DNA of 64,000 nucleotides from a bacterium (GCA_021814695.1 JAKAHY010000002.1:8920-72919); one strand, 5' to 3'; shown: positions 2,627 to 62,459, numbered from the stretch's first letter. Notes: generated by a model from the letters alone, not told the origin. Translations and numbers: made by a program.

Positions 2627-2672
2627 CTTCTTGTGCAAGGAGTGCTTGCACTACGAAGCCTTGGCGAAGTAG

Positions 2673-2988
2673 TGGAGATGGCGAGAGTTGAACTCGCGTC
2701 CAGAAAGAGGGATTGAAAGCGTCTACGGGCGTATCTTCTTTTGGAAGCTGATTTGCTTTCTGATTGTCCCTACGGATACGAAAGCGCTTTCCGTGGGTAA
2801 GCCTCAAATATAACACCGGCGATTTCCCCATGAGACATCGGGAGCCGATGGCTTACGCACGAACTAAAAAGTTCTTAAGCGTATGCAAGTGCTACATTTC
2901 TGTTAGCAGATTTGTTTTGGCGGATTTACAAGTCGCCGCTTGACCCGCAACTTTCAAAGAACTCTATCTGTCAAAGCCCAGCATCCCC
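2673..2988 (-). ncRNA. ssrA: tmRNA (SsrA)
   Basis: Minus strand: 5' GGGGATGCTGGGCTTTGACAG... and 3' ...GGACGCGAGTTCAACTCTCGCCATCTCCA (T-arm plus acceptor, CCA not encoded). Immediately downstream of smpB. Putative tag ORF GCT AAC AGA AAT GTA GCA CTT GCA TAC GCT TAA, giving ANRNVALAYA. Confidence 0.85.
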
Positions 2989-3426
2989 TTAGGCAATATG
3001 TTTTCTTACTTGGCGCTCGGTTTCCCTTTTTTTAATCGTTTCTCTCTTATCCGTTTTCTTCTTGTGAACGCCCAGTCCTATTTCAAGCTTTATTTTACCG
3101 CGCTTGTTATACAGCTTAAGGGGCACCAGAGTCAAGTTTTTGGATGATGCTTGACCGACAAGAGCGATAATTTCCGACTTTTTTGCCAAAAGTCGGCGCG
3201 ATCGGCGAGGATCGAAATCTTTGGGTGTATTTTTCTCCTGGTAGGGGCCAATTGTTGCGCCAACCAGCCAAAGCTGTCCTCCATAAATTTTAACCAACGA
3301 CCCGACAACACTGGCTTTACCGGAGCGGATAGCTTTAGCCTCATGGCCCAAAAGTTCAATTCCGGCATTTAAAGTGTCGGAAATTTCGTAATCAAAATAG
3401 GCTTTTTTGTTTTGGATTGATTCCAT
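2989..3426 (-). CDS. smpB: SsrA-binding protein SmpB
   Basis: 145 aa; KAYFDYEI...GIELLGHEAKAIR...VPLKLY is a typical SmpB sequence. Confidence 0.95.
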   Translation of the reverse strand: MESIQNKKAYFDYEISDTLNAGIELLGHEAKAIRSGKASVVGSLVKIYGGQLWLVGATIGPYQEKNTPKDFDPRRSRRLLAKKSEIIALVGQASSKNLTLVPLKLYNKRGKIKLEIGLGVHKKKTDKRETIKKRETERQVRKHIA

Positions 3427-3470
3427 CTGTTTATTTATGATAGTGCCTTGTGGGATTTTTTTGCAAGCGA

Positions 3471-3481
3471 TGTGATATAAT
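3471..3481 (+). promoter_or_regulatory. Extended -10 promoter TGTGATATAAT. The same element precedes the genes at 5697, 8397 and 52626, all with short SD-less leaders
   Basis: Identical 11-mer at 3471, 5688, 8367 and 52583; variants at 10652 (ileS) and 18999 (ppsA). Confidence 0.5.
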
Positions 3482-3498
3482 GAAACAAATAAAAAACT

Positions 3499-5643
3499 AT
3501 GAAAAAATCTTCATTAATCGTGGTCATTTTGCTTGTTGTGGCAAGCGTAGGAATGACCGTCATCTTTTCAAATCAAGTGTCGATAAAGGGATTTCTATCG
3601 AGCGTTTATTCTACTGCATCAGGCAGAAATCATATACAGCTGGCAAACGCTCAGTCCTTGGGACAGGGGGTTGTAGTTTTTAAAGCGCAATTTGGCCATT
3701 TGGAAGCAACCGGCCAAGTTGTCTCCGGTATTTCCGGACTAGCGGGGCTGCCGGTGACAAAATTTGTTCCCGACAGAGACCTTTCGGATTCTGAAAAAAA
3801 GCAGGTTGAAGTAAACATCACCGAAGAGAACACCGTTTTCGGATTTATTGTGGCAAAAAACGTTTCATTAGGGCAGGGAATCGGTTTTAACATTCCCCAA
3901 GGAGAAGTTTATAACTACGGTTTTTATGTGAATTCCGACATCCTTCCTCAAGGATGGACATATAACTCTTCTTGCGTAGAGACGGGAGGAAATATTAAAT
4001 TATCTGCCGGCCAACAAAGCGAATGCACGATAGGTTTTTATCTGAAACCAACGCCTGCGCCGGTTACTCCTCCCGCTTCGACGTCCACTCCCGTCTCACC
4101 TCAGGAAGGAGCGTCAGGTACCGTTATTAGTGAAGATTCCGGTTCTGGATCGCTGCAGTTTGTAAAAAATATTTTGGACTTAAGTACGGGGTGGAAAAAC
4201 CCCGGATCGGATAAAATATTGGACGCAAAAATCGTTGAATTATACGGAAAGAAATTTCTTATTGTTTCGACTCAAAACAAACATTTGCTTGTTTACGATG
4301 CTTCAAACCAGTTTTCGCCGGTTCTTTTGAAAGATAATGATTTATCAGGCAGTAACGTGTCGGCGTTTTATCTTGTGGTTTTAGATAATTTCAATTACGT
4401 ATTTGCCTGGGGAGGAAACTCTGCCAACTACGGATCTTTTAAGATTGAACAAGACGGATCTGCGTCTCTGGTAAAAAGTTACAAACCTGACCAATATAGC
4501 GTTACTCAACCGAATTTGGTTTTCGGGTTGTTTAGAGGGTTAGACGGTAAAGCGTATGGATTTGGAGGGAACGGGGGCGATGGATGGCTAACTATTTATG
4601 ACGTGTCCGATCCGGCAAACATCAGCGAAATTGGATCATATCAAGATGGCTTAGTCGGGAATCACTGCGGCAATTATGGTCTGATTGGATTGGACAGGCC
4701 GCTTCAATGGAATACTTCTCAACAAGGGAACAAGCTTTATCTGGTAACTCATGCGGACCAGTGCGTCCAGCGGCTGCATACTTCCGGAGACGCCAGAATT
4801 TATATTTTTGACGTTTCTGATCCAAAAAATCCGCAGCTTTCCCATCAATATGAGCTTTCCGGTTCTTTTAACCACATACCTTCGGACGCGACTAAGGCCG
4901 AACAGACATTTCTTTTTGGCGGGATCGCCGACATTGCCGTTGATTCAAATTCGGGTAAGGTTTTTGATTTTTACAGGACGGTTTTTGATTGGCAGGGGCC
5001 ATCCTGGTCTCAGATAGCAAACATAGTGCATGGTACTTTGTTTAGATACAGAACCGGACTGGTCACTCTTTCACTGCAATCGGACGGTTCTCTAAAAGAA
5101 TTGTCGCGGGCTTTATTGTGCGAACAAAAGGGCCCAATGTATGATGGTGGCGGTCCGCAATATTATCGATGCGGCGACGTGGATGGAAACGACAAAAATA
5201 CCCAAGGCGGATATGATTATTCGGCAAGAAATTCTCAACAAAATTACAACGGAGTTTTTCTCCTCAGTGGGCCGGGAAATAGCGGTCAGGTGGGCTTACT
5301 AAGGAGTGATAATAGTTTTGTTGTCATTCCCGATACCGCCGGAGAGATGACTAAATTTAAGACGGCTATTAAAGATTCATCTTATTATTCGAATATCTAT
5401 AATCCCGCTATCAATGGTGTTGTGACCCAGGTTGACAGTAAAACATTTGCCATCTATCAATTTGATAGTTATTCGTTAAGCGTCGTTAAGGTTTTGTTGT
5501 CGCAATCTCTTGTGGGGGGATCGAAAAATCCCTCTCCTCCAGTGACCGGAGTTGCGCCTTCGGCAAACGTACCACTAACATCACCCGCATTTTCATTTAA
5601 TGCGCTCCTGAACATCTTCAGAAGGATACTTAACAACTACTAA
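3499..5643 (+). CDS. Secreted/surface LVIVD-repeat (beta-propeller) protein, paralog 1
   Basis: N-terminal signal/TM segment; repeated (Y/I)xDVSDPxNP LVIVD-like motifs; Pro/Ser/Thr linker; conserved C-terminal tail AFSFNALLNIFRRILNNY. Confidence 0.7.
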   Translation: MKKSSLIVVILLVVASVGMTVIFSNQVSIKGFLSSVYSTASGRNHIQLANAQSLGQGVVVFKAQFGHLEATGQVVSGISGLAGLPVTKFVPDRDLSDSEKKQVEVNITEENTVFGFIVAKNVSLGQGIGFNIPQGEVYNYGFYVNSDILPQGWTYNSSCVETGGNIKLSAGQQSECTIGFYLKPTPAPVTPPASTSTPVSPQEGASGTVISEDSGSGSLQFVKNILDLSTGWKNPGSDKILDAKIVELYGKKFLIVSTQNKHLLVYDASNQFSPVLLKDNDLSGSNVSAFYLVVLDNFNYVFAWGGNSANYGSFKIEQDGSASLVKSYKPDQYSVTQPNLVFGLFRGLDGKAYGFGGNGGDGWLTIYDVSDPANISEIGSYQDGLVGNHCGNYGLIGLDRPLQWNTSQQGNKLYLVTHADQCVQRLHTSGDARIYIFDVSDPKNPQLSHQYELSGSFNHIPSDATKAEQTFLFGGIADIAVDSNSGKVFDFYRTVFDWQGPSWSQIANIVHGTLFRYRTGLVTLSLQSDGSLKELSRALLCEQKGPMYDGGGPQYYRCGDVDGNDKNTQGGYDYSARNSQQNYNGVFLLSGPGNSGQVGLLRSDNSFVVIPDTAGEMTKFKTAIKDSSYYSNIYNPAINGVVTQVDSKTFAIYQFDSYSLSVVKVLLSQSLVGGSKNPSPPVTGVAPSANVPLTSPAFSFNALLNIFRRILNNY

Positions 5644-5656
5644 AAATTTAAAATAA

Positions 5657-5686
5657 AGCCCCCTGTAAATACAGGGGGCTTTTTGA
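5657..5686 (+). terminator. Rho-independent terminator
   Basis: AGCCCCCTG-taaata-CAGGGGGCT followed by TTTTT. Confidence 0.6.
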
Positions 5687-5696
5687 ATGTGATATA

Positions 5697-8321
5697 ATGA
5701 AACAAATGAAAAAAACATTACTCATCGGGTTTATTGTGGTCGGCATTGTAAGCTTTTCGGCATTTACCGCGCATGCTCAGTCGGTCAATTATCTTAGTAA
5801 ATTTTTTGCAGATGTCTACGGAGCGTTTTTTGGGAATTCCCAAACGCAAAAAGTTGACGCCCAAACAGTGGGTAATGGAACACTTACTATTCATGCTCAG
5901 ATATGTCAGACGCTCGGGAATTTCGAAAATCCAAGCAGTGCGACCTGTTCTGGTACTCCTCGCGACCCCAATTCTACGGAGTCTCCGTTATTTGTTTATG
6001 ATGTCCAGCGCATAGTTGGGAATGGAGCGAGCGCTCAAGTTACCACAGTTCTTTCAGGTATCGGTCCCGGACAAAGTTATTCGTTACCGGCGAATACTCC
6101 AAACGCTAGTAATAATAACAGAGATGAGTACGTGATTGTGTTTAAGGGGGCACCGACAAATTATTTGTACGTGAGACAAGGAGGAAATTTTGATTTGCCC
6201 TATAAATTTTCAATTTCTTCCGGACAAAATACTCAAGTAAATATTCCTTATGTTATTTATACGGCGATTGAATCAACGGGTCCTGTTGGCACTACTGTTA
6301 CCGCCGATATTGTTGATGGCAATGGAAATTTTGTCAGAGCGCTGACGGCTTCAGAAATTCAATCGGTATCCTTTGACATCCAGCATTCGGTTCCGGCCAC
6401 CGGAGGATATGTCGGATCGCATGCGAACAATTTTGATACTCAAGTTTCTTCGGGAAAATTAAATACTTCATATCAGCTTGCGACCTATGTCCATTCCGGT
6501 TCAATTTTGACAAATATTAAGCCACCATCCGGTTACGTAGTCAGATCAATTAAGCCGGGAACATATTTTGATCCTACTGATGACGTTACTATTCATTTTA
6601 CCAAGTCTCCTGTTTCGTCTCAGGTTCAAAAAGTTGATCAAATGCTCTATGTTCCTAATGGAATTAGCTATGTAAAAAAAATAGCTCAAACATATTCGGA
6701 CAATGAATACAAATATTCGAATCTTGACGTTGATTTATTTGCTTATTATGGAAACAATAATCGTCCTTTTCCCTTGAACTGGACAGTTGCCAAATATTCG
6801 GGAGTTCCTTATTTGTTTATGAATGGAGCAGGAAAGATAGTTATTTATAATATTTCCGATCCTAAAAATCCCAAACAAGTTAGTGAATATGTTCTTTCCG
6901 GTTTGGAAAAATTTAATCAATACAAAGATCGTCAGGGAAATACTTATGGACAGTGTTCTCCTAACCAAGAAGGTACTCATGATTTTATAACTGGAGCCGG
7001 TAAAGTTTTTGCTCTTGATGATTCCCCTTATCTTTTGATTGACATTCAGAGACCGGGTGGGCCAGGCCCTGGAGGGACGGCAGTTTTGTCCTTAGATCCT
7101 TCAACTATGGCCATAACCGCCTATCCTCAATGGACCGAGTGTAACAGTGGTCAAGATACTCCCGGAACCGCTTTCGGAATGTATAAAGGAAGTGACGGAA
7201 ATACTTATTTTATTTCCCAATTCCCGAATAATGCATATGATACGGGTGGAGTAGATACCGGGAATATTGGTATTTACACAATCAATTCTGCTGGTATTGC
7301 CAATAAAGTTGTCGTTCTCAGCGGAATGTCCGGGATTGCTCCGAGTTTGGATTATTCTAATGGAACAATCTCTGTTGTTTCCGTTGGAAGTAAAAAATAT
7401 CTTATTGGTAATGGAAAATCATCTATCGCAAACATAAATTCGACCAGTGCACCAATTTATATTTACGATATTTCCAATCCAAAAAATATAATCAAAATCA
7501 ATCAACAGATCACGGTGTCTACGTCTGGGTCCGGCAGATTAAAAATTGACGAACAAGCCAATCGTATGTATGTTCAGTCATCCATTCCAAATCCTGCCGC
7601 AACATCAACTTCGTACACCATCCCCAAAACATTACCTATTTGGCAGGTATATGACTTGAGTGTTTTGCCCAGTACTCCAAAATTAATTGCTACTTATAAC
7701 AAACCAACCGACCTACTTAATTCAAGTCAAGTGAATGCTGATTTTTCTCAAATTACCAAGAGATTAAATATTGCATCGTCAGGTAATCTTGTGGATATAA
7801 ATAATTCTTCTTTCACTTACGGCGCCTACGGATATTCTTCTTCACTCCAGTTGATAAATGTTTCAAATAATTTAGCTTATATATCACTGTATACAAACGG
7901 AAAAAACCCTTGGGATACGATTGCCAATCAAGCCGGAGTAACGGACGGAAGCGAATACGGGACCAATGCTATTCAATTTATAGTTGACGTGTCCAATGCG
8001 TCCAGTCCCAAAATACTTGGAATGATATTCGGGCATACGGAATATTCTGCTTACGGACTTTCCGCCGGCGGATGGTTTGATGTTCCTCTTTACGGAAGTA
8101 TCTATAACTATAACGGATATATTTACCGAGCCAATTTCCGCATCGCTGATGTATGGAAATTGGGGAATCCTCCGGCCCAAAGTACGGGAGGTGCTGGAAG
8201 TGGGGCTGGTGCGAGCGGCACTGGAACTACCGAAGGAGGATCTGCGCCATCATCAGTTCAATCTCCATTTTCTTTCAGTTCTCTTTTGAAGATATTCCAG
8301 AGAGTGTTTAATAATCAATAA
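5697..8321 (+). CDS. Secreted LVIVD-repeat protein, paralog 2 (874 aa)
   Basis: Signal peptide; IYNISDPKNPK and IYDISNPKNI repeats; Gly/Ser/Thr linker; tail PFSFSSLLKIFQRVFNNQ. The likely start may be the second ATG at 5706, which would make the mRNA leaderless. Confidence 0.65.
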   Translation: MKQMKKTLLIGFIVVGIVSFSAFTAHAQSVNYLSKFFADVYGAFFGNSQTQKVDAQTVGNGTLTIHAQICQTLGNFENPSSATCSGTPRDPNSTESPLFVYDVQRIVGNGASAQVTTVLSGIGPGQSYSLPANTPNASNNNRDEYVIVFKGAPTNYLYVRQGGNFDLPYKFSISSGQNTQVNIPYVIYTAIESTGPVGTTVTADIVDGNGNFVRALTASEIQSVSFDIQHSVPATGGYVGSHANNFDTQVSSGKLNTSYQLATYVHSGSILTNIKPPSGYVVRSIKPGTYFDPTDDVTIHFTKSPVSSQVQKVDQMLYVPNGISYVKKIAQTYSDNEYKYSNLDVDLFAYYGNNNRPFPLNWTVAKYSGVPYLFMNGAGKIVIYNISDPKNPKQVSEYVLSGLEKFNQYKDRQGNTYGQCSPNQEGTHDFITGAGKVFALDDSPYLLIDIQRPGGPGPGGTAVLSLDPSTMAITAYPQWTECNSGQDTPGTAFGMYKGSDGNTYFISQFPNNAYDTGGVDTGNIGIYTINSAGIANKVVVLSGMSGIAPSLDYSNGTISVVSVGSKKYLIGNGKSSIANINSTSAPIYIYDISNPKNIIKINQQITVSTSGSGRLKIDEQANRMYVQSSIPNPAATSTSYTIPKTLPIWQVYDLSVLPSTPKLIATYNKPTDLLNSSQVNADFSQITKRLNIASSGNLVDINNSSFTYGAYGYSSSLQLINVSNNLAYISLYTNGKNPWDTIANQAGVTDGSEYGTNAIQFIVDVSNASSPKILGMIFGHTEYSAYGLSAGGWFDVPLYGSIYNYNGYIYRANFRIADVWKLGNPPAQSTGGAGSGAGASGTGTTEGGSAPSSVQSPFSFSSLLKIFQRVFNNQ

Positions 8322-8330
8322 TAATTTGAA

Positions 8331-8360
8331 ACAATCCCCCTAGCTGGGGGATTTTTTTGC
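8331..8360 (+). terminator. Rho-independent terminator
   Basis: ATCCCCCTAG-CTGGGGGAT followed by TTTTTTT. Confidence 0.6.
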
Positions 8361-8396
8361 AAGCAATGTGATATAATAAAACAAATAAAAATAACC

Positions 8397-10580
8397 ATGA
8401 AAAAATATTCATTAATTGTGATTATCTTACTTGTTGTTGCAAGTATAGGGATTACCGCTATCTTTTCAAGTCAAGTGTCGATAACCGGATTTCTTTTGAG
8501 CGTTTACTCAACTGTTTCGGGGAGCAATCAAATACAGAGAGTAAATGCACAAACGACAGGCCAAGGAACCATATTATTCCAAGGCCAATTCGGTCATCTT
8601 GAATCGACCGGAAAGGTCACTACCGGAATTTCGGGCTTATCCGGACTTCCGGTGATGAAATTTGTTAAAGACCGTGACCTATCTAGCGATGAAAAAAATC
8701 AGATTAGAGTGGATGTTATTGAACATAACACTCCTTTTGAATTTGTAGTTGCAAAAAATATTTCGCTTGGAGAGGGTGTTAATTTTAATATTCCCGTAGG
8801 TTCGACATATAGATATAGTTTTTATGTTCACCCCGACTCGATTCCCTCCGGATGGGTTTATTATTCCGGTTGTTTAGAGACCGATGGGAATGTTTCGGTA
8901 CTGGCCGGTCAGCAAAGTACTTGCAGCATAGGATTTTATTTAAAGCCCGAAACAATCTCACCCCCTCCGGTCACATCAACATCTACGATCACGTCTACTC
9001 CTTCGGTAGGTGTTTCGGGAACTGTTGTCGGTGAAGATGCCAGCGCAGGATCGTTGCAGTTTGTAAAAAACGTTTTGGATTTAAGCTCACAAAGAAAGGG
9101 CATTATTTATGGAGTTTTGGACGCAAGAACCGTTAATTTGTATGGAAAAAATCTTCTGATAGTTGCTAGAGGTGGAGCTTACTCTGCTACCACTCCAACC
9201 TGGCATATGCTTGTTTATGATATAACCGATCCGCTTGCCCCGGTTCTTTTGAAGGATAATGATATGTCCGGAAGTGGCATAATCTATAGTTCTCCAATGA
9301 CCGGTTTGGCAGTGCTTGATGGCTTTAATTATGTATTTGTCCGTGGAAATGTCGGTTACGGTTCGTTTAAAATTAATCAGGACGGAACTGCGTCTCTTGT
9401 GAAAAGCTATAAATATTCTGAAGTTCAGCAGATACAGACAGATTTAATCAGGGGATTGTTCAACGGTCTGGATGGAAATATATACGGCTACGGAGGGTTT
9501 GTGCAGGATGGAGGACTCGTGCTTTATAACGTTTCCGATCCCGCTAATATTATTCAAGTTGGAACGTATACTAATGGTCTTGAACCAGCGATTGCCATCT
9601 ATGGACAAATTGGATTGAATCGCCAGAGCACTTGGGGCGTTGTTAAAGAAGGAGGCAAACTTTATCTTATTGCTCATGCGGACCAGTTGGTTCTGCGCCT
9701 TCATACGGATTATGATGGAATGATTTATGTTTTTGATGTGTCCAATCCGGCAAGTCCGCAGCTTTCACATATCTATAAAATGTCCAGCTCCTTTAATCAC
9801 CTTCCTTCCGATATGACTTCGTATGAGAAGATGTTTCTTTACGGAGGAGAAGCTAATATATCGGTTGATCCAATATCAAATAGAGTATTTGATTTTTACA
9901 GAACGGTTTTTGATTGGCAGGGACCCAATCAGCTTAAGATAAAAGACATTCCTAAAGGAGCCTTGTTTCGTTATAGAAATGGAATAGCCGTTCTTTCAAT
10001 AGGAATCGATGGTTCTTTGAAATCAAGTTCCAGTAACATATTATTGTGCGAAAGAATAGCCATTCAAGATAATGGGACGTCAGGCGAAGATAAATGTGAT
10101 ACAAAGAGTCCCGAAACGGTTGGGGGATATTATAGTTCCAGTCTTTATGGAAACAGGAATCCTCAAGAAAATTATAACGGAGTATTTCTTCTTGGCGACG
10201 TGAATAATGTCGGACATGTAGGGCTGTTAAAAAGCGATGGTAGTTTTGTTATCATACCCGATCCAACCGGAGAAATGCTTAAATTCAAATCTGTCTTGGC
10301 TGACCCGTCGTATTATTCCGATCCTGGTTTTCGTTCGTCTCCAATCAATGGCATTGTCACTCAAGTTGATAGCAAAACCTTTGCAATATTTCAGATTGAT
10401 AATTATTCCATAAGTGTTACAAAGCTAAATCTATCACAATCCATAACGAGCGTAACACAAAAATCTTCGCCACCTACCACAAATGCCCCTAGTTCATTAA
10501 ATACATCATCTCCTACTCAGACTCCATTTTCCTTCAGCTCGCTCCTGAGAATATTTCAGAGGGTGTTCAATAGTCAGTAA
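8397..10580 (+). CDS. Secreted LVIVD-repeat protein, paralog 3 (close duplicate of paralog 1)
   Basis: The N-terminal 100 aa are nearly identical to the 3499 protein; tail PFSFSSLLRIFQRVFNSQ. Confidence 0.7.
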   Translation: MKKYSLIVIILLVVASIGITAIFSSQVSITGFLLSVYSTVSGSNQIQRVNAQTTGQGTILFQGQFGHLESTGKVTTGISGLSGLPVMKFVKDRDLSSDEKNQIRVDVIEHNTPFEFVVAKNISLGEGVNFNIPVGSTYRYSFYVHPDSIPSGWVYYSGCLETDGNVSVLAGQQSTCSIGFYLKPETISPPPVTSTSTITSTPSVGVSGTVVGEDASAGSLQFVKNVLDLSSQRKGIIYGVLDARTVNLYGKNLLIVARGGAYSATTPTWHMLVYDITDPLAPVLLKDNDMSGSGIIYSSPMTGLAVLDGFNYVFVRGNVGYGSFKINQDGTASLVKSYKYSEVQQIQTDLIRGLFNGLDGNIYGYGGFVQDGGLVLYNVSDPANIIQVGTYTNGLEPAIAIYGQIGLNRQSTWGVVKEGGKLYLIAHADQLVLRLHTDYDGMIYVFDVSNPASPQLSHIYKMSSSFNHLPSDMTSYEKMFLYGGEANISVDPISNRVFDFYRTVFDWQGPNQLKIKDIPKGALFRYRNGIAVLSIGIDGSLKSSSSNILLCERIAIQDNGTSGEDKCDTKSPETVGGYYSSSLYGNRNPQENYNGVFLLGDVNNVGHVGLLKSDGSFVIIPDPTGEMLKFKSVLADPSYYSDPGFRSSPINGIVTQVDSKTFAIFQIDNYSISVTKLNLSQSITSVTQKSSPPTTNAPSSLNTSSPTQTPFSFSSLLRIFQRVFNSQ

Positions 10581-10668: not shown

Positions 10669-13600
10669 ATGTTGAGAAATCTTAAACACTTTAATCCGCC
10701 GGAAATTGAGGAAAAAGTTTTACAGCTTTGGAAAGAAAAAGGGATATTTCAAAAAACACTCAAAGTTCCAAAAGGAAAAAAGGCCCTGCCTACCGGCAGG
10801 CAGGCAAAAATATTTCGGTTTTGGGAAGGTCCACCGACAGCCAATGGCCGTCCCGGAATTCATCATATTTTAGCCCGTTCTTTTAAGGACGTTGTTTTGC
10901 GTTTTAAAACGATGCAAGGGTATACGGTTCCCCGTAAGGGTGGTTGGGATACTCATGGATTGCCCGTTGAAATCCAGGTTGAAAAGCAGCTCGGATTTAA
11001 AACAAAAAAAGATATAGAAGATTACGGAATAGCCGCATTCAACCAAAAATGTAAAGAATCAGTCTGGCTTTATCAAAGCGAATGGGAAAAATTGACCGAA
11101 CGCATGGGTTTTTGGCTGGATTTGAAAAATCCTTATGTCACATACCACAAAGATTACATAGAGTCGCTTTGGTGGATCATCAAACAAGTTTGGGATAAAG
11201 GGTTGATGTATCAAGGGCATAAAGTGGTTCCTTGGTGTACTCGCTGCGGGACAGCTCTTTCTTCCCATGAATTGGCTCAAGGATACAAAGAGCTTACCGA
11301 TACTTCTGTTTACATAAAATTTAAACTTCTTCCAAAACAAAAAATCGGTTCTTTTATAACCGATGATAAAACATACATCTTATCCTGGACGACGACTCCT
11401 TGGACTTTGCCCGGAAACGTCGCTTTGGCAGTCGGAAATAAAATCAAATATATTGCGGCAAAAATCGGAGGAGAGACTTTTATTATTGCGGAAGATCTTG
11501 CCGGATCGGTTTTGGGATCGGAAAATCATAAAGTTATCAATGAATTTAAAGGCGAGTCGATTTCAGGGAAAGAATACGCCCCACTTTTTGAAATTGCGGC
11601 ATTAAAAAAACCGGAATCGTACAAGGTATATCCGGCTAAATTTGTGACAACCACCGATGGAACGGGGGTGGTGCACACGGCCGTAATGTACGGAGAGGAC
11701 GATTATAACCTGGGAAAAGAAGTCGGACTTCCTCAGCATCATACGGTTACCGAACAAGGAACTTTCACAAAAGACGTTAAAGGATTTGAAGGGATGTACG
11801 TCAAAGCCAAGGAGACCGAGGATAAGATACTAGATTATCTAAAGAAAAATAATTTCCTTTTGCAAACACAGGCTTATACCCATGAATATCCTCATTGCTG
11901 GAGATGTGGAACTCCGCTTTTGTATTACGCGCGCAGTTCATGGTTTGTAGCGATGTCGAAACTGAAAGATAATCTGATCGAAAGCAACCAGGGAACCAAC
12001 TGGGTTCCGGCACATATCAAAGAGGGCAGATATGGAGAATGGCTCTCCGAAATTAAAGATTGGAATTTTTCACGGGAAAGATATTGGGGCACCCCACTGC
12101 CGATCTGGACGTGCGAGAATTGTGGAAACCATAAAGCTGTTGGAAGTTATAAAGAGCTTTCGGAACATCTTCCTTCTAGTACCAACAGATATATTCTTGT
12201 CCGTCATGGAGAAGCGGGGCAAAATGTTTCCAATATAATCAACTGCGACCCCAAAGATAAGGATAAATACCCGTTAACAACCAATGGAATAATCCAGGCG
12301 AAGAGAACTTCCCTGAGCCTCAAGAAAAAAATAAAAAAAATAGACGCGATTATCTCGTCGGATTTTATTCGGACAAAGGAAACCGCAAAAATTATCGGCG
12401 ATGAATTTGGAATAAAGAAAATAATCACCGATCCGCTTTTGAGGGAAGTTAACATGGGAGATTTTAACGGGGACAATGTTTCTCGTTACCACGAGTACTT
12501 TTCTTCGCTTGAAGAAAAATTTATGAAACGGACCCCTAACGGAGAAAACCTCAGAGATCTGGCCGCAAGAAGCTACGATTTTATACAAAAATGTGAAAAA
12601 AAATACAGCGGGAAAACTATTGTTGTGGTAGGGCATGAATATCCGCTGTGGATGGCGGAGACCGTTCTTTCTGGATGGAGTCAGGAAGAATCGGTGTCGG
12701 AAAAAGAAAAAAGAGGTCCCGATTTTATAGAAGTCGGAGGATTTGATTCCGTTACTTTTGTTCCGGCATCAAGAGATGAACAGGGAATCTGTGATTATCA
12801 TAAGCCATATGTGGATTCAATCAGCATCCCTTGCGAAAAATGCGGAAAAAAGATGAATCGAGTTAAAGAAGTTGCCGACGTATGGTTTGATTCGGGGTCA
12901 ATGCCATTTGCCCAAGATCATTATCCTTTTGAGAAGGGTGATAAAGTCGGGAAAGCGCCCCAATCGTTTCCGGCCGATTATATCTGTGAGGCAGTCGATC
13001 AGACCCGCGGGTGGTTTTACACTCTTATGGCCGTCTCTACATTATTGGATTATGAAACGCCGTATAAAAACGTCGTTTGCCTAGGGCATATAAACGACAA
13101 GCATGGACAGAAAATGTCCAAATCAAAAGGGAACATTGTTGATCCATGGATGATAATAGATAAATATGGCATTGATGCCGTTAGGTGGTATTTTTACACC
13201 GTTAATGCTCCGGGGGAGCCGAAGAATTTTGACGAGAATGAGGTTGCTAAAGTACTGAGAAAATTCAGCATGACTCTTTATAATTCGTTCGCGTTTTTGG
13301 CGCTTTATGGAAAACAGAAGGTAAGTATCCAAAAGAAACCTTCATCGCCGAATATTTTGGACAGGTGGATTTTGGCAAGGCTAAATCAAACAACTGTCGG
13401 AGTTTCGGACAAAATGGACGCATATGATTTCTTGGCTACCGGACAAATAATAGAATCGTTTATTGACGATCTTTCCAGATGGTACATTCGCCGATCGAGA
13501 AAGAGATTCCAAAAAATTTCGGATAAATCGGATTGGGGTACGGCGACCGGTGTTTTGGCGTATGTTTTGGCCGAATTTTCAAAAGTGATCGCTCCCTTTA

Positions 13601-14223
13601 CTCCATTTTTCGCCGAAGCTCTTTACAGATCCATAGCCGAATTTTGTTCGTTTAGCGCAAAAGAATCCGTTCATCTCGAATCATGGCCGGAGGGCAGGGT
13701 TTTTAATGACGATGCGGTTATGTCGGAAGCCATGAAACAGATAAGAGACTACGCCAGTGCTGTTTTGGCAAAAAGAGCCGAAGTTGGAATCAAAGTGCGG
13801 CAGCCTTTGAGCTTGTTGAAAATAAGAAGCATTAAGTCTAAAGAAAAAGACTCTAAACAATTATTAGAAGTGTTAAGGGATGAAGTTAACGTCAAAGAAG
13901 TTGTGATTGATCCAAAAATAGAAAATGAATTTGAGTTGGATATCAACATCACTCCGGAACTTAAAGCCGAAGGAATTTTGAGGGAAATAGCCCGGACAAT
14001 TCAGGAATTGAGACAAAGTTCGGCATGTGTTCCCAAGGATAAAATAGAAGTTCGCATTTCCGGACCTGCCGACATTGAAGCGGTGGTCAAAAACGGACAA
14101 GCCACGCTTTGCCAATACGTTAACGCCAAAAATATTCTTTTCGGTAAGAGCGGTAAATTTGATTCCGAAATTGAAACCAAAATTGATTCGTCAAAAATTT
14201 GGATAGGTTTAAGAAAAATATAA
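10669..14223 (+). CDS. ileS: Isoleucyl-tRNA synthetase (type 2-like) carrying an inserted histidine-phosphatase (PGAM-like) domain
   Basis: HIGH-like GRPGIHH, KMSKS, WCTRCGT and CENCG/CEKCG zinc knuckles. Residues about 505-690 (nt about 12180-12730) contain LVRHGE...VVGHE. Confidence 0.95.
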   Translation: MLRNLKHFNPPEIEEKVLQLWKEKGIFQKTLKVPKGKKALPTGRQAKIFRFWEGPPTANGRPGIHHILARSFKDVVLRFKTMQGYTVPRKGGWDTHGLPVEIQVEKQLGFKTKKDIEDYGIAAFNQKCKESVWLYQSEWEKLTERMGFWLDLKNPYVTYHKDYIESLWWIIKQVWDKGLMYQGHKVVPWCTRCGTALSSHELAQGYKELTDTSVYIKFKLLPKQKIGSFITDDKTYILSWTTTPWTLPGNVALAVGNKIKYIAAKIGGETFIIAEDLAGSVLGSENHKVINEFKGESISGKEYAPLFEIAALKKPESYKVYPAKFVTTTDGTGVVHTAVMYGEDDYNLGKEVGLPQHHTVTEQGTFTKDVKGFEGMYVKAKETEDKILDYLKKNNFLLQTQAYTHEYPHCWRCGTPLLYYARSSWFVAMSKLKDNLIESNQGTNWVPAHIKEGRYGEWLSEIKDWNFSRERYWGTPLPIWTCENCGNHKAVGSYKELSEHLPSSTNRYILVRHGEAGQNVSNIINCDPKDKDKYPLTTNGIIQAKRTSLSLKKKIKKIDAIISSDFIRTKETAKIIGDEFGIKKIITDPLLREVNMGDFNGDNVSRYHEYFSSLEEKFMKRTPNGENLRDLAARSYDFIQKCEKKYSGKTIVVVGHEYPLWMAETVLSGWSQEESVSEKEKRGPDFIEVGGFDSVTFVPASRDEQGICDYHKPYVDSISIPCEKCGKKMNRVKEVADVWFDSGSMPFAQDHYPFEKGDKVGKAPQSFPADYICEAVDQTRGWFYTLMAVSTLLDYETPYKNVVCLGHINDKHGQKMSKSKGNIVDPWMIIDKYGIDAVRWYFYTVNAPGEPKNFDENEVAKVLRKFSMTLYNSFAFLALYGKQKVSIQKKPSSPNILDRWILARLNQTTVGVSDKMDAYDFLATGQIIESFIDDLSRWYIRRSRKRFQKISDKSDWGTATGVLAYVLAEFSKVIAPFTPFFAEALYRSIAEFCSFSAKESVHLESWPEGRVFNDDAVMSEAMKQIRDYASAVLAKRAEVGIKVRQPLSLLKIRSIKSKEKDSKQLLEVLRDEVNVKEVVIDPKIENEFELDINITPELKAEGILREIARTIQELRQSSACVPKDKIEVRISGPADIEAVVKNGQATLCQYVNAKNILFGKSGKFDSEIETKIDSSKIWIGLRKI

Positions 14224-19041: not shown

Positions 19042-21477
19042 ATGGCAAAACCTTTTATTCGTGAGATGGCTTCATTAACAATTAAAGATGTTCCTGAAGC
19101 AGGAGGGAAAAATGCATCACTTGGAGAAATGCTTAAGGTCTTGAGGCCCAAAGGAGTTAACATTCCCGATGGCTTTGTGGTTACAGCCACGGCTTATAGG
19201 CATTTTATAAACGAAGGGATGGTTGTAACCAACGGAGAAAAAGTTAACTTAAAGAAATTTATCAAGGATACCCTTAAAGGACTGGACACTAAAAATGTCA
19301 GGGATTTGTATGCTCGTGGAAAATCAATCAGACAAGCAATTGTTTCGGCGGAACTACCTAAAGATCTACAGCGCCAGATTGTAAATTTTTACAGAAAAAT
19401 GGAAAAACAGTATTTTCCCAACGTCGACGTTGCTGTTCGTTCTTCGGCCACGGCCGAAGATCTTCCAGGGGCATCCTTTGCCGGACAGCAGGAAACTTAT
19501 TTGAACGTAGTCGGAGATGAGAAGTTGCTTGAGGCTGTTAAAAAATGCATCGCTTCTCTTTTTACCGACAGAGCCATATCTTACAGGCAGGATAAGGGAT
19601 TTGATCATCTTAAAATTGCGCTCTCGGTCGGGGTTCAAAAAATGGTTCGTTCGGACAAGGCGGCGTCGGGAGTTATGTTTACTGTCGACACCGAATCGGG
19701 GTTTAAAGACATAGTTATTGTCACGGCTACCTTTGGTTTGGGCGAGTTGATTGTTCAGGGAGAAATAGTCCCGGACGAATATCTGGTACACAAATCTTTT
19801 TTGGGCAAAAAAGACATCGTCCCGATAATCAGCAAAAAACACGGCTCAAAGGACAGAAAAATGATTTATTCGTTTGGCGGAAATAAATCCACAAAAATTA
19901 TCGATACGACTCCTAAAGAGAGAGACTCGTACGTCTTGACCGACGAAGAAATCCTAACTCTTTCAAAGTGGGCAACTCTTGTGGAAGAACATTACACGCG
20001 CGTCAGGAAAACGTGGACGCCCATGGACCTTGAGTGGGCCAAAGACGGCAAAAGCGGGAAACTTTATATAGTTCAGGCAAGGCCCGAGACGGTTCAGGCC
20101 GGGAGAGACTTTTCTAAAATTAAGGAATTTGAACTGTTGGGAAAAGGAAGTTTGCTTTGTAAGGGAACTTCCGTGGGAAGCCAAATTGCATCAGGCAAGG
20201 CCCAGATTATTCTTGATGTAAAACATATTGAATCGTTCAAAGCGGGGGAGGTATTGGTAACGGACATGACCGATCCGGACTGGGAGCCAATAATGAAGAT
20301 TGCGTCGGCAATAATTACGGATAAAGGCGGGCGTACTTCGCATGCGGCAATAGTTTCCCGGGAACTAGGAATTCCCTGTATTGTCGGGACGGAAAATGCC
20401 ACTAAAAAAATAAAAACTGGGCAAGCCGTAACGGTGGATACTACCGGAGGCGAGGGGTATGTGTATGATGGATTGATTAAATTTAAAGTTATCGAGCATG
20501 ACGTAAAACACATCCCTAAACTTAAAACGAAGATAATGATGAACATAGCTACTCCTGATACTGCTTTTGAAAAATCATTTTTACCCAATAGCGGGGTAGG
20601 ATTGGCTCGTGAAGAATTTATTATAGCTTCCGATATCGGAATTCATCCGATGGCCCTGCTCGAATTTCCGGAATTGGAAAAAAGAGCCAAGCGGGATCCA
20701 AAAATAAAGAAAATAGTGACGGAAATAGAAAAGCGGACTCGGGGATGGAAAGATAAAAAGAAATATTATGTTGAGAATTTGGCTTATGGGATTGCAAAAA
20801 TCGCCACAGCTTTTTACCCCAAGGATATTATTGTCAGATTCTCGGATTTTAAGACCAATGAGTATAGGCAACTTGTGGGCGGAGAATTATATGAACCACA
20901 CGAAGAAAATCCGATGATAGGATGGCGCGGAGCTTCCCGATATTATAATCCTTCGTTTGCCCCGGCATTTGCTCTTGAAGTAAAAGCCATAAATAAAGTC
21001 AGGGAGGAAATGGGACTCTCTAATGTCCAGGTGATGATTCCTGTATGCCGAACTGTGGATGAGGGTAAAAAAGTTGTTGCGTTGATGGCAAAATACGGCC
21101 TCAAAAAACACGATGGATTTAAAATCTACGTAATGTGTGAAATTCCATCAAATGTTATCTTGGCGGATGATTTTCTGGATATTTTTGATGGTATGAGCAT
21201 TGGCTCCAACGATCTCACCCAAATGACTTTGGGTCTGGACAGAGACGGAAATGAGCGCATCAGAGGTATTGGGAATGAAAAGAACGAAGCGGTAAAGACT
21301 CTGATTTCTCAGGTAATAAAGCGCTGCAATGCCAGAAAAAAATATATAGGCATCTGCGGACAAGCCCCCAGCGATTATCCTGATTTCGCCAAGTTCCTGG
21401 TGGATGAAGGAATTCAAAGCATGTCACTTAATCCCGACTCAATCGTAAAAACAATTTTGTATTTGGCCAAAAAATAA
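19042..21477 (+). CDS. ppsA: Phosphoenolpyruvate synthase (pyruvate, water dikinase)
   Basis: 811 aa; N-terminal ATP-grasp, central GGRTSHAAIVSRELGIPCIVG phosphohistidine domain and C-terminal PEP-utilizing domain. Confidence 0.9.
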   Translation: MAKPFIREMASLTIKDVPEAGGKNASLGEMLKVLRPKGVNIPDGFVVTATAYRHFINEGMVVTNGEKVNLKKFIKDTLKGLDTKNVRDLYARGKSIRQAIVSAELPKDLQRQIVNFYRKMEKQYFPNVDVAVRSSATAEDLPGASFAGQQETYLNVVGDEKLLEAVKKCIASLFTDRAISYRQDKGFDHLKIALSVGVQKMVRSDKAASGVMFTVDTESGFKDIVIVTATFGLGELIVQGEIVPDEYLVHKSFLGKKDIVPIISKKHGSKDRKMIYSFGGNKSTKIIDTTPKERDSYVLTDEEILTLSKWATLVEEHYTRVRKTWTPMDLEWAKDGKSGKLYIVQARPETVQAGRDFSKIKEFELLGKGSLLCKGTSVGSQIASGKAQIILDVKHIESFKAGEVLVTDMTDPDWEPIMKIASAIITDKGGRTSHAAIVSRELGIPCIVGTENATKKIKTGQAVTVDTTGGEGYVYDGLIKFKVIEHDVKHIPKLKTKIMMNIATPDTAFEKSFLPNSGVGLAREEFIIASDIGIHPMALLEFPELEKRAKRDPKIKKIVTEIEKRTRGWKDKKKYYVENLAYGIAKIATAFYPKDIIVRFSDFKTNEYRQLVGGELYEPHEENPMIGWRGASRYYNPSFAPAFALEVKAINKVREEMGLSNVQVMIPVCRTVDEGKKVVALMAKYGLKKHDGFKIYVMCEIPSNVILADDFLDIFDGMSIGSNDLTQMTLGLDRDGNERIRGIGNEKNEAVKTLISQVIKRCNARKKYIGICGQAPSDYPDFAKFLVDEGIQSMSLNPDSIVKTILYLAKK

Positions 21478-22746
21478 ATGATTCTTTCGGAAACAAAAAT
21501 CGTAGCCATTAAAGATTCAAGAGGCAGTCAAACGCTTGAAGCGCACATCACAGCCCATGAAGGCGATAGTAAGGAAATTTCCGTTGTGGCAAGCGTTCCT
21601 GCCGGGAAAAGTACCGGAATTCACGAAGTAAAGTCGTTGAGTCCGGCTCTTGCATTTGAACAGTTTGAAAAAATAAAACGCAATATCATCGGAGTTAACT
21701 TTCATGACCAGCAGGAATTTGATGCTTTGTTGATCGCATTAGACGGAAGTTTGGATAAGCATGTTTTGGGAGGTAATTTAATCCTTGTTTTGTCGGAAGG
21801 ATTTGCGCGGGCTTTTGCTGCAACCCGAGATCTAGGGCTTAACCAATACCTTCATCAGCTGCTTGGGTCAAAACATAAAATTCCGGACCGGTTTCCCAGA
21901 CCTTTATTTAATATAATAAACGGAGGGGCTCATGTGACGATTCCCTCGGACTGGGATAAAAAATTCGGAGTTTCAAAATCTCTGGATATCCAGGAATTTC
22001 AGGTGGTTCCAGCGACAGATGATTTTGCTTTAGGATTAAGTGTGGGAAAAGAATTTTATTCAAAACTTGGATATGAGCTTGGAAAAATATATGGAGCAGA
22101 AAATGTAATCTTAGGGGATGAGGCGGGATATGTCTGTCCGTTTAAAACAAATGAAGAAGCGCTCGAAATTATCCAAGAGCTGATTAATCGGTATTTATAT
22201 CCACTCAAAATAGGGCTGGATGCGGCAGCATCCCAATTTCATAATGATGCCGACGATTCTTATATGATAGAAGGAGCCGAAAGGACCCCAGAAGAGTTGA
22301 CGATGCTTTATTACGACCTTGCTCATGCTTACGAATTGATATCGCTTGAGGATCCTTTTAACGAAGAGGCATTTGATGATTTTGCCGGTCTTCAAGAAAA
22401 AATTCCCAAGACTATTCTTATTACCGACGATCTTACGACAACCAATCCCGAAAGATTATCCAAGGCGATTTCTAAAAAATCGGCCAATGCCATACTTATT
22501 AAACCCAATCAAATCGGAACAATAACAGAAACGATTGATGTTATTTCTATGGCTTATGAAAACGGATGGAAGACAATAGTCAGTCACCGGAGCGGTGAAA
22601 CCAAAGATGATTTTATCGCCGACTTAGCTGTTGGTGTCGGAGCTTGGGGATTAAAATCCGGAGCGCCGGCGACAGAATACAGAATGGCAAAATATTCCAG
22701 GGCTCTCGATCTATGGCAAAAAATTAACCCTTCCGGCCCCTTTTAA
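21478..22746 (+). CDS. eno: Enolase
   Basis: DSRGSQTLEA...SHRSGETKDDFIADLAVG matches enolase; the start abuts the ppsA stop. Confidence 0.9.
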   Translation: MILSETKIVAIKDSRGSQTLEAHITAHEGDSKEISVVASVPAGKSTGIHEVKSLSPALAFEQFEKIKRNIIGVNFHDQQEFDALLIALDGSLDKHVLGGNLILVLSEGFARAFAATRDLGLNQYLHQLLGSKHKIPDRFPRPLFNIINGGAHVTIPSDWDKKFGVSKSLDIQEFQVVPATDDFALGLSVGKEFYSKLGYELGKIYGAENVILGDEAGYVCPFKTNEEALEIIQELINRYLYPLKIGLDAAASQFHNDADDSYMIEGAERTPEELTMLYYDLAHAYELISLEDPFNEEAFDDFAGLQEKIPKTILITDDLTTTNPERLSKAISKKSANAILIKPNQIGTITETIDVISMAYENGWKTIVSHRSGETKDDFIADLAVGVGAWGLKSGAPATEYRMAKYSRALDLWQKINPSGPF

Positions 22747-54261: not shown

Positions 54262-54495
54262 ATGTCTACTAAAAAAACAACAATTGTGATTATTCTCCTG
54301 GTTATACTGGTGGCAGCAGCCATTCTTGCATATTCCTGGTATACAAAGAAAGCTTCGGTTTCTACTACAGAAACATCTACCGCGCCCACATCCGGATTGG
54401 GTAGTCAATTATATCAGCAGACAGGAGCTCCGGCAGCCAGCCCGCTTCAAAATACCAACCCCTTCGACAAGGTAAAAACTAATCCTTTTGAGTAA
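54262..54495 (+). CDS. Small membrane-anchored hypothetical protein
   Basis: 77 aa with an N-terminal TM segment; overlaps the next gene's start. Confidence 0.3.
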   Translation: MSTKKTTIVIILLVILVAAAILAYSWYTKKASVSTTETSTAPTSGLGSQLYQQTGAPAASPLQNTNPFDKVKTNPFE

Positions 54496-56239: not shown

Positions 56240-56279
56240 TGATGAGTAAAAAATATCCCGAATCGATTCGGGATATTTT

Positions 56280-56978
56280 TTATGCCTTTGCCACCACTAA
56301 GCCGATTATTTTTTGGGCGCCATATTTTTTAAGAAGAAGAGAAATTTCGTTAAGCGTTGCCCCTGATGTTGAAACGTCATCTATCAGGATAATGTTTTTG
56401 CCCGAAACCGACTCCGGGCCGGTAATTTGAAAACATTCGGAAATATTTTTTATTCTTTCGGAAAAATCTTTGGTTTTGGCCTGGGGTGGATTATTTTTTA
56501 CTCTTTTCAGGACATCAAGACAGGGGAGAGAAAAATAATCCGAAACAACAGAGGCAATAATTTGCGCCTGATTGAATCCTCGGGCGCGAAATTTGGATTT
56601 ATGAAGGGGAACGAATGTTATAACATATCGGCTCAAATCGATTCCGGTTTCTTTAAGATATGAAATTAACATGGCACATAATATTGTTCCTATGCCCTCT
56701 ATTTTTTTATATTTAAATGTATGGATCAGGGACGGTATGGGTGCTTCAAATCTGCTTGCGGGCGCCAAGACATAGCTTGTGTCGTGGCATTTATCTGTCC
56801 CCGGCAGGCGGGACATACACTTCGGGCAATAAAGAGCCGAGTTGAGACGTATTTCATCAAAGCATGATTGGCAAAGAAATTGTTTCTGATCGGGAATGGA
56901 GGATTTGCAGTTTACGCATACAGGAGGAAAAACGGTGTCCGAGGCTAATTTATTCAATTGAGCGATGATTTTTATCAT
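56280..56978 (-). CDS. comFC: ComF-like competence protein (phosphoribosyltransferase domain plus N-terminal zinc finger)
   Basis: CxxC pairs at the N-terminus; PRTase motif IILIDDVSTSGATL. Confidence 0.75.
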   Translation of the reverse strand: MIKIIAQLNKLASDTVFPPVCVNCKSSIPDQKQFLCQSCFDEIRLNSALYCPKCMSRLPGTDKCHDTSYVLAPASRFEAPIPSLIHTFKYKKIEGIGTILCAMLISYLKETGIDLSRYVITFVPLHKSKFRARGFNQAQIIASVVSDYFSLPCLDVLKRVKNNPPQAKTKDFSERIKNISECFQITGPESVSGKNIILIDDVSTSGATLNEISLLLKKYGAQKIIGLVVAKA

Positions 56979-57062
56979 AAATTCGGATATAATAATTATA
57001 AAAGATAGAGGTTACCGGTTTCCAGATCTTCGTGATCGGCAATCTTTTTGTCTTATACGACC

Positions 57063-58142: not shown

Positions 58143-58155
58143 TTTTAAATTTTTC

Positions 58156-59305: not shown

Positions 59306-59308
59306 TTT

Positions 59309-59605: not shown

Positions 59606-59607
59606 AT

Positions 59608-61344: not shown

Positions 61345-61382
61345 ATTAGCCAATAAATATTCGATAAGTTATACTTAAATAT

Positions 61383-62453: not shown

Positions 62454-62459
62454 ATAGAA

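Follow-up and report, generated by a model that had tools for sequence, protein, structure and literature searches.

How does an aminoacyl-tRNA synthetase come to hold a complete second enzyme in the middle of its catalytic core, and what might that enzyme do there? The question is raised by ileS, the gene for isoleucyl-tRNA synthetase (IleRS), in a 64,000-nucleotide stretch of bacterial DNA (GCA_021814695.1, JAKAHY010000002.1:8920-72919), which was analysed over its whole length and is called the window below. Aminoacyl-tRNA synthetases are among the most conserved enzymes, and catalytic domains nested in their Rossmann-fold core are rare. A preliminary description of the locus reported a histidine-phosphatase domain, labelled PGAM-like, between the zinc-knuckle Cys pairs of the synthetase, called the arrangement unusual, and suggested a regulatory or moonlighting module or a relic of domain capture. 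We find that the insert forms a complete histidine-phosphatase domain, which belongs to branch 1 and is of the short PhoE/PspA/GpgP/CobC type. Judged by comparison with its relatives, the fused protein of this uncultivated bacterium is the ordinary IleRS of a large clade (Paceibacteria/Parcubacteria) of the Candidate Phyla Radiation (CPR), and phosphatase and IleRS show an evolutionary partnership. The arrangement is thus unusual for synthetases in general but not within this clade, where fusion is the normal state of IleRS. Our preferred reading, to which we assign a probability of about 0.6, is that the protein would be bifunctional, an active IleRS and an active phosphomonoesterase in one chain, and that the phosphatase would work with a class Ia synthetase rather than independently.

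The gene is a single ATG-to-stop open reading frame (ORF) of 1184 codons with neither an internal stop nor a frameshift, as had been stated before, and the motifs quoted in the preliminary description (CENCG, RHGE, GHE, CEKCG, DVWFDSG and KMSKS) lie where it placed them (Table 1). A Pfam scan of the whole protein returns tRNA-synt_1 in two stretches, one on either side of His_Phos_1, together with Anticodon_1 and DUF5915. In the alignment with the IleRS of T. thermophilus (1ILE), residues 6-499 of the window protein correspond to chain residues 6-478, and residues 709-1038 to chain residues 489-818. Because this alignment breaks at aa 500-708, the 209-residue insert takes the place of a 10-residue loop (T. 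thermophilus residues 479-488) that forms the tip of a Zn hairpin in the second half of the Rossmann fold, and the insertion point falls between the two Cys pairs that bind the metal (C461/C464 and C502/C504 in T. thermophilus). The position relative to type-2 IleS is thereby confirmed. The interval first assigned to the domain, 12180-12730, lies within the insert as now delimited (12166-12792), and the original length of about 180 aa suits the Pfam core, the whole insert being longer. The closest insert-less relative retrieved, from a Patescibacteria metagenome-assembled genome (MAG; locus L009, 48% identity), has a hairpin of 58 aa with the same two Cys pairs and shows the insertion point to lie between 'GSxxEL' and 'DxHxPYxD'. 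Across the region the GC content is flat, with no discontinuity. The identical 1184-aa protein is found on 11 contigs of up to 244 kb, from several samples and different assemblers; an assembly chimera or frameshift is therefore excluded.

The identity of the inserted domain is clear at the level of the superfamily and of the fold. Residues 509-673 match PF00300 (His_Phos_1) with E = 4.3e-28 over profile positions 2-164 of 194, scoring 98.7 bits where the cut-off is 21.7, and the full catalytic set is present (R512, H513, R568, E593 and H656). AlphaFold2 (AF2) predicts the full-length protein with a mean predicted local distance difference test score (pLDDT) of 89.1 and a predicted template modelling score (pTM) of 0.82 from a 60-sequence alignment, the insert stretch lying at 86-97; the insert alone reaches a pLDDT of 94.9 and a pTM of 0.91 from a 51-sequence alignment. 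Searched against the PDB with Foldseek, the insert model retrieves short histidine phosphatases at a probability of 1.00 and template modelling (TM) scores of 0.67-0.77: the mycobacterial hydrolases 6S2Q/6S2R, PspA (4IJ5), GpgP Rv2419c (4PZ9), CobC (6E4B), an HFP of the riboflavin pathway and PhoE (1H2E). The highest sequence identity among these structural matches is the 26% of PspA. Profile search, 1ILE alignment and structural models thus agree with the earlier proposal of a complete branch-1 histidine phosphatase, its fold intact, between the zinc-knuckle pairs of an otherwise intact IleS.

Assignment below the level of the superfamily is a different matter, since the insert reaches no NCBIfam equivalog cut-off. 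Its best score is with the archaeal model dPGM_arch for cofactor-dependent phosphoglycerate mutase (dPGM) (NF038349; 92.9 bits vs 225), and the named phosphatase models are missed as well: CobC (64 vs 163), GpmB (63 vs 261), the RNase H/acid phosphatase model NF005567 (60 vs 326), PspA (57 vs 350) and SixA (34 vs 74.5). The subfamily is marked by RHGEaexNV without the usual 'QG..D.PL', by 'G.FN' in place of 'G.WEG', and by a C-terminal GW. The domain belongs to this CPR-specific subfamily and to no characterised equivalog. Residues and model together predict an apparently active phosphomonoesterase that would work through a phospho-histidine intermediate.

The synthetase that surrounds the phosphatase is of type 2. 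The ileS equivalog model TIGR00392 is matched with 859.4 bits (cut-off 621.4) in a match that the insert splits in two, the best PDB matches are the type-2 enzymes 1ILE (E = 4.5e-242) and 8C8W (2.3e-232), with the type-1 enzyme 1FFY reaching only 7.8e-96, and the C-terminus is that of IleRS type 2 (DUF5915). All synthetase signatures are intact, namely GIHH, KMSKS, both Zn sites and the motifs of the editing domain (CP1), TTTPWT at aa 241-246 and GTGVVH at about aa 331-336, which are also conserved in relatives. Synthesis of Ile-tRNA(Ile) by the window protein is predicted. The window protein shares its HIGH-type motif, GIHH, with L009, which has no insert, and with 116 of 119 fused relatives, and the exception models for the acquired mupirocin-resistance enzymes MupA and MupB are missed by a wide interval (776.6 and 758.6 bits vs 1900). 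According to Brkic et al. 2023 (PMC10485003), the GXHH variant, in which the first and third positions of HXGH are swapped, gives IleRS2 its mupirocin hyper-resistance. The window IleRS is a member of the type-2 GXHH subgroup described there. Because GXHH is shared by the 116 fused relatives and L009, intrinsic mupirocin hyper-resistance is predicted across the fused clade.

The fusion is widespread and conserved. In a search with the full protein, 120 of the 120 relatives among the matches listed (52-83% identity) carry PF00300 together with IleRS domains; their named sources are Ca. Wolfebacteria, Jorgensenbacteria, Liptonbacteria, Parcubacteria, Paceibacterota and Minisyncoccia, and a separate fused fragment comes from Nealsonbacteria. 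An exhaustive hidden Markov model (HMM) search of 1.84 billion cluster representatives with a fusion profile (insert plus flanks) gave 563 representatives of 50%-identity clusters at E <= 1e-30, and of these 563 the best 150 are virtually all insert-bearing IleRS. Alignment of 119 full-length relatives shows no variation at the five catalytic residues (119/119) or at S564, E626 and R634. The flanking cysteines are conserved at 98-100% (C482, C722 and C725 100%, C485 98%) and the junction residues N506, Y508, R702 and G706 at 96% or more. Mean identity to the window protein is 44% in the insert, 50% in the anticodon-binding domain, 44% in the C-terminal domain and 65% in the catalytic core. Because the catalytic residues are invariant in all 119 relatives while the insert averages 44% identity, we reject the earlier suggestion of a relic of domain capture; the pattern argues for an ancient, selected and catalytically competent part of the enzyme. 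In one deep-branching fused IleRS (L003, Ca. Paceibacteria JBFIHK010000002, ~6000-6800; 39% identity in the insert region), all four hairpin cysteines are missing (WQDAQGQ... / ILNEQGET), and the phosphatase domain and its catalytic residues are kept.

Examples have been in GenBank and UniProt since 2015 (e.g. KKS82181.1 / UniRef100_A0A0G1EGL4), under no other name than isoleucine-tRNA ligase or 'class I tRNA ligase family protein'; the fusion sequences are already public, yet appear unrecognised. Many, among them P0117, P0124, P0130 and P0134, bear merely the latter name from the NCBI pipeline. This vague naming is likely due to the splitting of the HMM match by the insert, and IleRS may consequently look absent in automated annotation of CPR genomes.

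The position seen in the window (site A) is one of three IleRS loops in which such a domain is found. At site A itself, two tandem copies occur in four sequences (P0316, P0329, P0339 and P0362). Site B, the loop matching window aa 754-767 between DxWFES and KMSKS, holds the domain in P0397/P0359 (named Ca. Peregrinibacteria), P0306 and P0336 and the second copy of P0300; site C, the loop matching aa 881-890 between the post-KMSKS helix and the anticodon-binding bundle, is used in P0317, P0306, P0336 and P0273. P0317, P0365, P0306 and P0397 each pass the ileS cut-off. By best match, most of these variants come from other Patescibacteria lineages, and P0317 is nearest to Firmicutes-type IleRS2. 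The R-H...R...E...H set is kept in every copy at every site, and two subtypes can be told apart, the 'RHGEaexNV' type of the window and a canonical 'RHGETxWN...QG' type. The neighbour-joining tree of the domains is crude (BLOSUM distances, 182 columns, no support values) and was used solely for the statement that at least two subtypes were recruited. In one further sequence, P0318, ValRS models score best (411 bits vs 199 for ileS) and four His_Phos_1 domains follow in tandem from about residue 425, so that the association of phosphatase and synthetase may reach beyond IleRS. Apart from these, the P0365 cluster (1561 aa) combines a phosphatase at site A with an insertion of about 160 aa in the CP1 region and another of about 128 aa before KMSKS; its contigs measure up to 2.1 Mb, larger than typical CPR genomes.

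Free-standing relatives of the insert lead to the same pair of enzymes. The closest form a large family of 185-198 aa proteins with 33-37% identity that, where named, come from Ca. Moranbacteria. In all six contigs examined, argS is followed on the same strand by a small conserved ORF (~50 aa), by the phosphatase gene and, after one to three genes that vary, by an insert-less ileS. The small ORF encodes a basic N-terminus (MIRRIPKKYRxKY...) followed by one hydrophobic helix (FAFKVVGPVALFFIAAIG), and this small membrane ORF was not found in the fused loci. A metagenome scan with a 29-sequence profile yielded 80 loci. For the free-standing subfamily, all 14 evaluable loci have argS directly upstream, and ileS lies downstream in 11 of the 13 loci evaluable for it; among the fused loci of the scan (n=13), argS lies directly upstream of the fused ileS in 9/11 evaluable cases, and it does so in L003. 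As negative controls, about 45 generic His_Phos loci of the same scan had neither synthetase nearby, and no His_Phos lay near IleS in 19 loci without the insert, which come from Firmicutes, from DPANN archaea and from two Patescibacteria. The simplest history would be an ancestral argS-hisphos-ileS neighbourhood from which the phosphatase coding sequence later moved into ileS.

Two further comparisons between the fused and free-standing forms were made and set aside. A special sister tie of Moranbacteria IleRS to fused IleRS is not seen, the identity of 41-43% being no closer than that of Firmicutes IleRS2. The charge of the domain was considered as a sign of tRNA contact, the median isoelectric point (pI) being 5.5 in free-standing proteins and 9.2 in fused inserts, yet Moranbacteria IleRS and ArgRS are as acidic as the free-standing phosphatases and the fused IleRS core is as basic as the inserts; charge is uninformative because it follows lineage.

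We base the proposed partnership on two lines of evidence. Gene fusion combined with a conserved neighbourhood is the classical signature of functional partnership, and coupling to the synthetase in particular is suggested because insertion is recurrent, at sites A, B and C, in tandem copies, with at least two subtypes and in the ValRS-like P0318. Taken together, recurrent insertion and the neighbourhood link favour a synthetase-coupled role over an unrelated moonlighting role. The reaction would most likely run in two steps, in which (i) H513 would attack a phosphomonoester to give a phospho-histidine intermediate, its phosphate held by R512, R568 and H656 and with E593 as acid/base; and (ii) the intermediate would then be hydrolysed. 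The phosphate removed would be one borne by something that binds the synthetase. To our knowledge, no synthetase reaction needs a phosphomonoesterase. As to the substrate, a nucleotide-type or tRNA-end phosphomonoester is our tentative first candidate, a nucleotide-type compound being suggested by the HIT and NUDIX genes in the variable slot and by the nucleotide-like substrates of CobC and HFP. An unrelated small metabolite seems a rather improbable substrate, and a phospho-residue on the synthetase itself an improbable one.

Several observations weigh against a synthetase-coupled phosphatase. Genomic context is not uniform: no ileS occurs within 6-7 kb downstream of the free-standing phosphatase in L033 and L036, argS is not directly upstream of the fused ileS in L001, L002, L056, L107 and the window, and the genes between the free-standing phosphatase and ileS vary. 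The weight of the synteny is lessened because all named free-standing loci are Moranbacteria and some metagenome loci are near-duplicates (L041-L043), and the gene order could partly reflect shared ancestry, not selection. The extension to ValRS comes from a single case, a partial sequence of 1161 aa on a 3.9-kb ENA contig. Of the solved structures, those closest to the insert are all of enzymes for small metabolites rather than for RNA or proteins, and the insert misses every NCBIfam equivalog cut-off. The idea of a tRNA end as substrate is further weakened by the window's own CCA-adding enzyme with an HD domain, since such an enzyme supplies tRNA 3'-end phosphatase activity in other bacteria.

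A more specific form of the preferred reading, which we hold to be possible although doubtful, is that CPR bacteria possess a dedicated phosphatase partner for class Ia synthetases that would erase a phosphate blocking tRNA charging. It would be free-standing beside argS and ileS in Moranbacteria and built into IleRS, and into at least one ValRS, elsewhere. The phosphate would sit either on the acceptor end of the tRNA or on synthetase residues on the KMSKS side; in the latter case, the domain would be a regulatory switch or would act in cis as an antidote to kinase toxins. If true, this would add a new layer of control or repair to translation.

Among the rival explanations, the foremost is a piggy-backing small-molecule phosphatase, acting for example on phosphoserine, on a sugar phosphate or on a cofactor-precursor phosphate like those that CobC or HFP use, whose chemistry is separate from aminoacylation and which, in streamlined CPR genomes, came to be fused into a loop that tolerates it, in an essential gene with constitutive expression. 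The nearest solved structures (PspA at 26%, GpgP, CobC, riboflavin HFP and PhoE), the typical soluble character of the free-standing relatives (~190 aa) and the unrelated functions encoded nearby (AOX, hemerythrin, DUF805) are all consistent with it. We nevertheless regard it as rather unlikely, for it leaves unexplained why domains from two or more subfamilies entered three different IleRS loops, in tandem arrays too, and a ValRS-like protein besides. Nor does it account for a conserved argS-hisphos-ileS frame that is absent from the roughly 45 generic His_Phos loci; internal insertion in a catalytic core is, moreover, a costlier route to co-expression than an operon or an end-to-end fusion. 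A built-in protein phosphatase would strip an inhibitory phosphate from the synthetase, for example from a KMSKS-loop Ser, and so serve IleRS as a cis-acting reset or antidote; the phosphate could come from a regulatory kinase or from a kinase toxin of the HipA/HipT type. In GltX and TrpS the KMSKS-type Ser is a target of Hip kinases, and the histidine phosphatase superfamily includes the protein phosphatases PGAM5, Sts-1 and SixA. Along the chain, the three insertion sites fall on both sides of KMSKS (site A at -315 to -107 residues, site B roughly at -50 to -60 and site C roughly at +65 to +75), other class Ia enzymes are involved through the ValRS-like fusion and the argS neighbour, and PspA-like phosphoserine phosphatases are among the best structural matches. 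However, no kinase gene was seen in the approximately 30 neighbourhoods examined, we know of no IleRS-directed kinase, protein-phosphatase members are not in the top 50 structural matches, and arrays of two to four copies would be needless for a single cis target, so that we consider this explanation unlikely.

That the insert could be a non-catalytic module, whether a structural spacer, an RNA-binding surface or a decaying fold, would agree with its lower conservation than the catalytic core (0.44 vs 0.65 identity), but the anticodon-binding and C-terminal domains are conserved to the same level, the AF2 model of the insert is of very high confidence, the five catalytic residues and S564, E626 and R634 are invariant in 119/119, and every additional copy keeps the catalytic set; we judge such a role very improbable. 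Slightly further still from the evidence is a glycolytic dPGM housed in IleRS. In its favour, the archaeal dPGM model scores highest among the NCBIfam models and, by phmmer, the S. pombe phosphoglycerate mutase (PGM; 1FZT) is the top PDB sequence match. Against these stand the other dPGM models, which are missed (TIGR01258 23.1 vs 81.7; NF002339 47.2 vs 316; NF010718 18.6 vs 366), the Foldseek search, in which true mutases rank below phosphatases, and the phmmer alignment with 1FZT, where the mutase substrate segment after the catalytic Glu, ERYYGDLQGLNK (ER.YG.LQGLNK), reads REVNMGDFNGDN in the insert. The window also encodes its own cofactor-independent PGM (iPGM) next to enolase and PPDK. 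We rejected the dPGM reading on these grounds, and the label PGAM-like holds for the superfamily but not for a mutase. An artefact or selfish element (assembly chimera, frameshift or intein-like mobile insertion), finally, has nothing in its favour save the unusual architecture and is scarcely credible: besides the identical ORF on 11 contigs and the lack of a GC break, hundreds of diverged homologues share the same junctions and the Zn hairpin is continuous on either side of the insert. An intein or mobile insertion was dismissed on the whole-protein Pfam scan, which contains no Hint or endonuclease domain, the insert being a complete metabolic-type enzyme fold.

In one of the largest radiations of bacteria, IleRS is visible only in a form that bears an intact second active site, and the identity of its substrate could point to a new step in the translation of unculturable organisms, whether of regulation, repair or defence. 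On a practical level, IleRS is inflated and split by the insert when CPR genomes are aligned by marker genes. The fused design seems to be undescribed: no description of a synthetase-histidine phosphatase fusion was found in full-text searches, which leave most subscription journals uncovered, so that a description elsewhere is possible. The insert is likewise not mentioned in Brkic et al. 2023 (PMC10485003) or in a 2026 preprint on IleRS domain evolution.

Table 1. Coordinates of ileS and its parts, of other features of the window, and of genes beside the free-standing phosphatase in the loci named (window positions unless a locus is given)
Feature	Position	Strand	Basis or remark
ileS, type-2 IleRS with embedded phosphatase domain	10669..14223	+	ORF, Pfam, TIGR00392, PDB matches, AF2
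GIHH (aa 63-66), GXHH variant of the class I HIGH signature	10855..10866	+	G-I-H-H in 116/119 relatives
CENCG (aa 482-486), first Cys pair of the insert-hosting Zn hairpin = T. thermophilus C461/C464	12112..12126	+	
Insert (aa 500-708): N-linker, histidine-phosphatase domain, C-linker with conserved R702 and G706	12166..12792	+	1ILE alignment break, L009, AF2
Pfam His_Phos_1 core (aa 509-673)	12193..12687	+	E = 4.3e-28, AF2, Foldseek
RHGE (aa 512-515), catalytic Arg and nucleophilic His of the RHG motif	12202..12213	+	R512, H513 100% of 119
R568, second phosphate-binding Arg (in SSDFIRTKETA)	12370..12372	+	100% conserved; invariant also in A1, A2, A5
E593, putative proton-donor Glu (in LLREVNMG)	12445..12447	+	100% conserved
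GHE (aa 655-657) including H656, second catalytic His	12631..12639	+	H656 100% conserved
CEKCG (aa 722-726), second hairpin Cys pair = T. thermophilus C502/C504	12832..12846	+	C722, C725 100% conserved
DVWFDSG (aa 737-743), Rossmann-fold strand where the IleRS core resumes past the hairpin	12877..12897	+	
Site B loop (aa 754-767), empty here; holds His_Phos_1 in Peregrinibacteria-like IleRS	12928..12969	+	Low pLDDT
KMSKS (aa 815-819), class I signature loop, intact	13111..13125	+	100% conserved in relatives
Site C loop (aa 881-890), empty here; holds His_Phos_1 in P0317, P0336, P0306, P0273	13309..13338	+	
Three large tandem ORFs (714, 874, 727 aa) upstream of ileS	3499-10580		727-aa protein at 8397-10580
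Glycolytic cluster: PPDK; enolase; cofactor-independent PGM	19042-21477; 21478-22746; 22789-24330 (minus strand)		
CCA-adding enzyme with HD domain	32150-33643		
tmRNA, eight tRNA genes, type IV pilus/type II secretion system (T2SS)-like set	2670-2988 (-); 30228-50258; 54488-63674		PilM, two T2SSE ATPases, T2SSF
Small ORF between argS and phosphatase	L027 7791-7976; L028 1341-1496; L029 ~5840-5995; L030 5845-5994; L031 5821-5994; L032 5833-5988		L029 uncalled
Variable-slot genes	L029 6610-7456, 10712-11251; L030 6611-7063; L038 596-1045; L044 3824-4303; L027 8564-9343		
Variable-slot genes, further	L031 6582-7729; L054 3111-3791; L035 8053-8427; L044 5971-6666; L047 9570-10184		

A constant third gene was looked for in the slot that separates the free-standing phosphatase from ileS, and none was found; AOX, 23S-rRNA-IVP, HIT, NUDIX, hemerythrin, DUF805 and unidentified genes occur instead. 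By count, the slot contains HIT-family genes in 2 loci, NUDIX in 2 (once after ileS), AOX-family in 3, hemerythrin in 2 and 23S-rRNA-IVP four-helix proteins in 3. The recurrence of HIT and NUDIX, both nucleotide hydrolases, is a suggestive but weak hint at nucleotide chemistry. In L036, a locus of the Moranbacteria type, a 623-aa ORF with no Pfam match (2865-4733) occupies the usual place of ileS, between the phosphatase and recO/tgt. Gaps of 0.7-1.1 kb without a convincing coding-strand ORF separate phosphatase and ileS in three loci (L041 4178-4878, L045 1132-2246 and L049 735-1853), and an RNA element, or a gene whose start is unusual, might lie in them.

Elsewhere in the window, the place directly upstream of ileS where many relatives have argS is taken by three large tandem ORFs with no Pfam match save one LVIVD repeat; the 727-aa protein has a hydrophobic N-terminus, and the three are probably cell-surface proteins. 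Neither argS nor any further His_Phos gene lies within the 64-kb window. Its other contents include the glycolytic cluster and the CCA-adding enzyme listed in Table 1; the tmRNA, tRNA genes and pilus-like set given there are typical of CPR episymbionts.

Among known systems, type-2 GXHH IleRS (1ILE; P. megaterium IleRS2, 8C8U-8C9D) resemble the window protein in synthetase body, Zn pairs, C-terminus and KMSKS, and differ in a hairpin tip of about 10 residues where the window IleRS has a 209-residue second enzyme. That extra domains can be tolerated in IleRS is known from ileS_w_GNAT (NF040702), in which the domain is of another type; the window protein matches this model through its IleRS part, with 302 bits vs 1999. 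The leucine-specific domain of bacterial LeuRS is likewise an extra module in a class Ia synthetase, placed just before KMSKS, roughly where site B lies, yet it is not an independent enzyme. A His_Phos_1 domain joined to a nucleic-acid enzyme is found in the RNase H/acid phosphatase of the Rv2228c type (NF005567), which is among the matches of the insert; there, the fusion is end-to-end and the partner enzyme is another. None of these three precedents has a histidine phosphatase within the Rossmann fold.

The phosphatase itself shares fold, size and catalytic set with the short branch-1 enzymes (PhoE 1H2E/1EBB, PspA 4IJ5, GpgP 4PZ9, CobC 6E4B/6NRU and HFP 9MMH), which have 20-26% identity to the insert and are free-standing, whereas the insert is embedded in another enzyme. 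Its closest kin are the Moranbacteria phosphatases P0006 and P0015, which have the same subfamily motifs and whose genes lie between argS and ileS. They differ from the fused form in being encoded by separate genes and in reading HGDPLEQL after the second catalytic His, where the fused form reads HEYPLWM.

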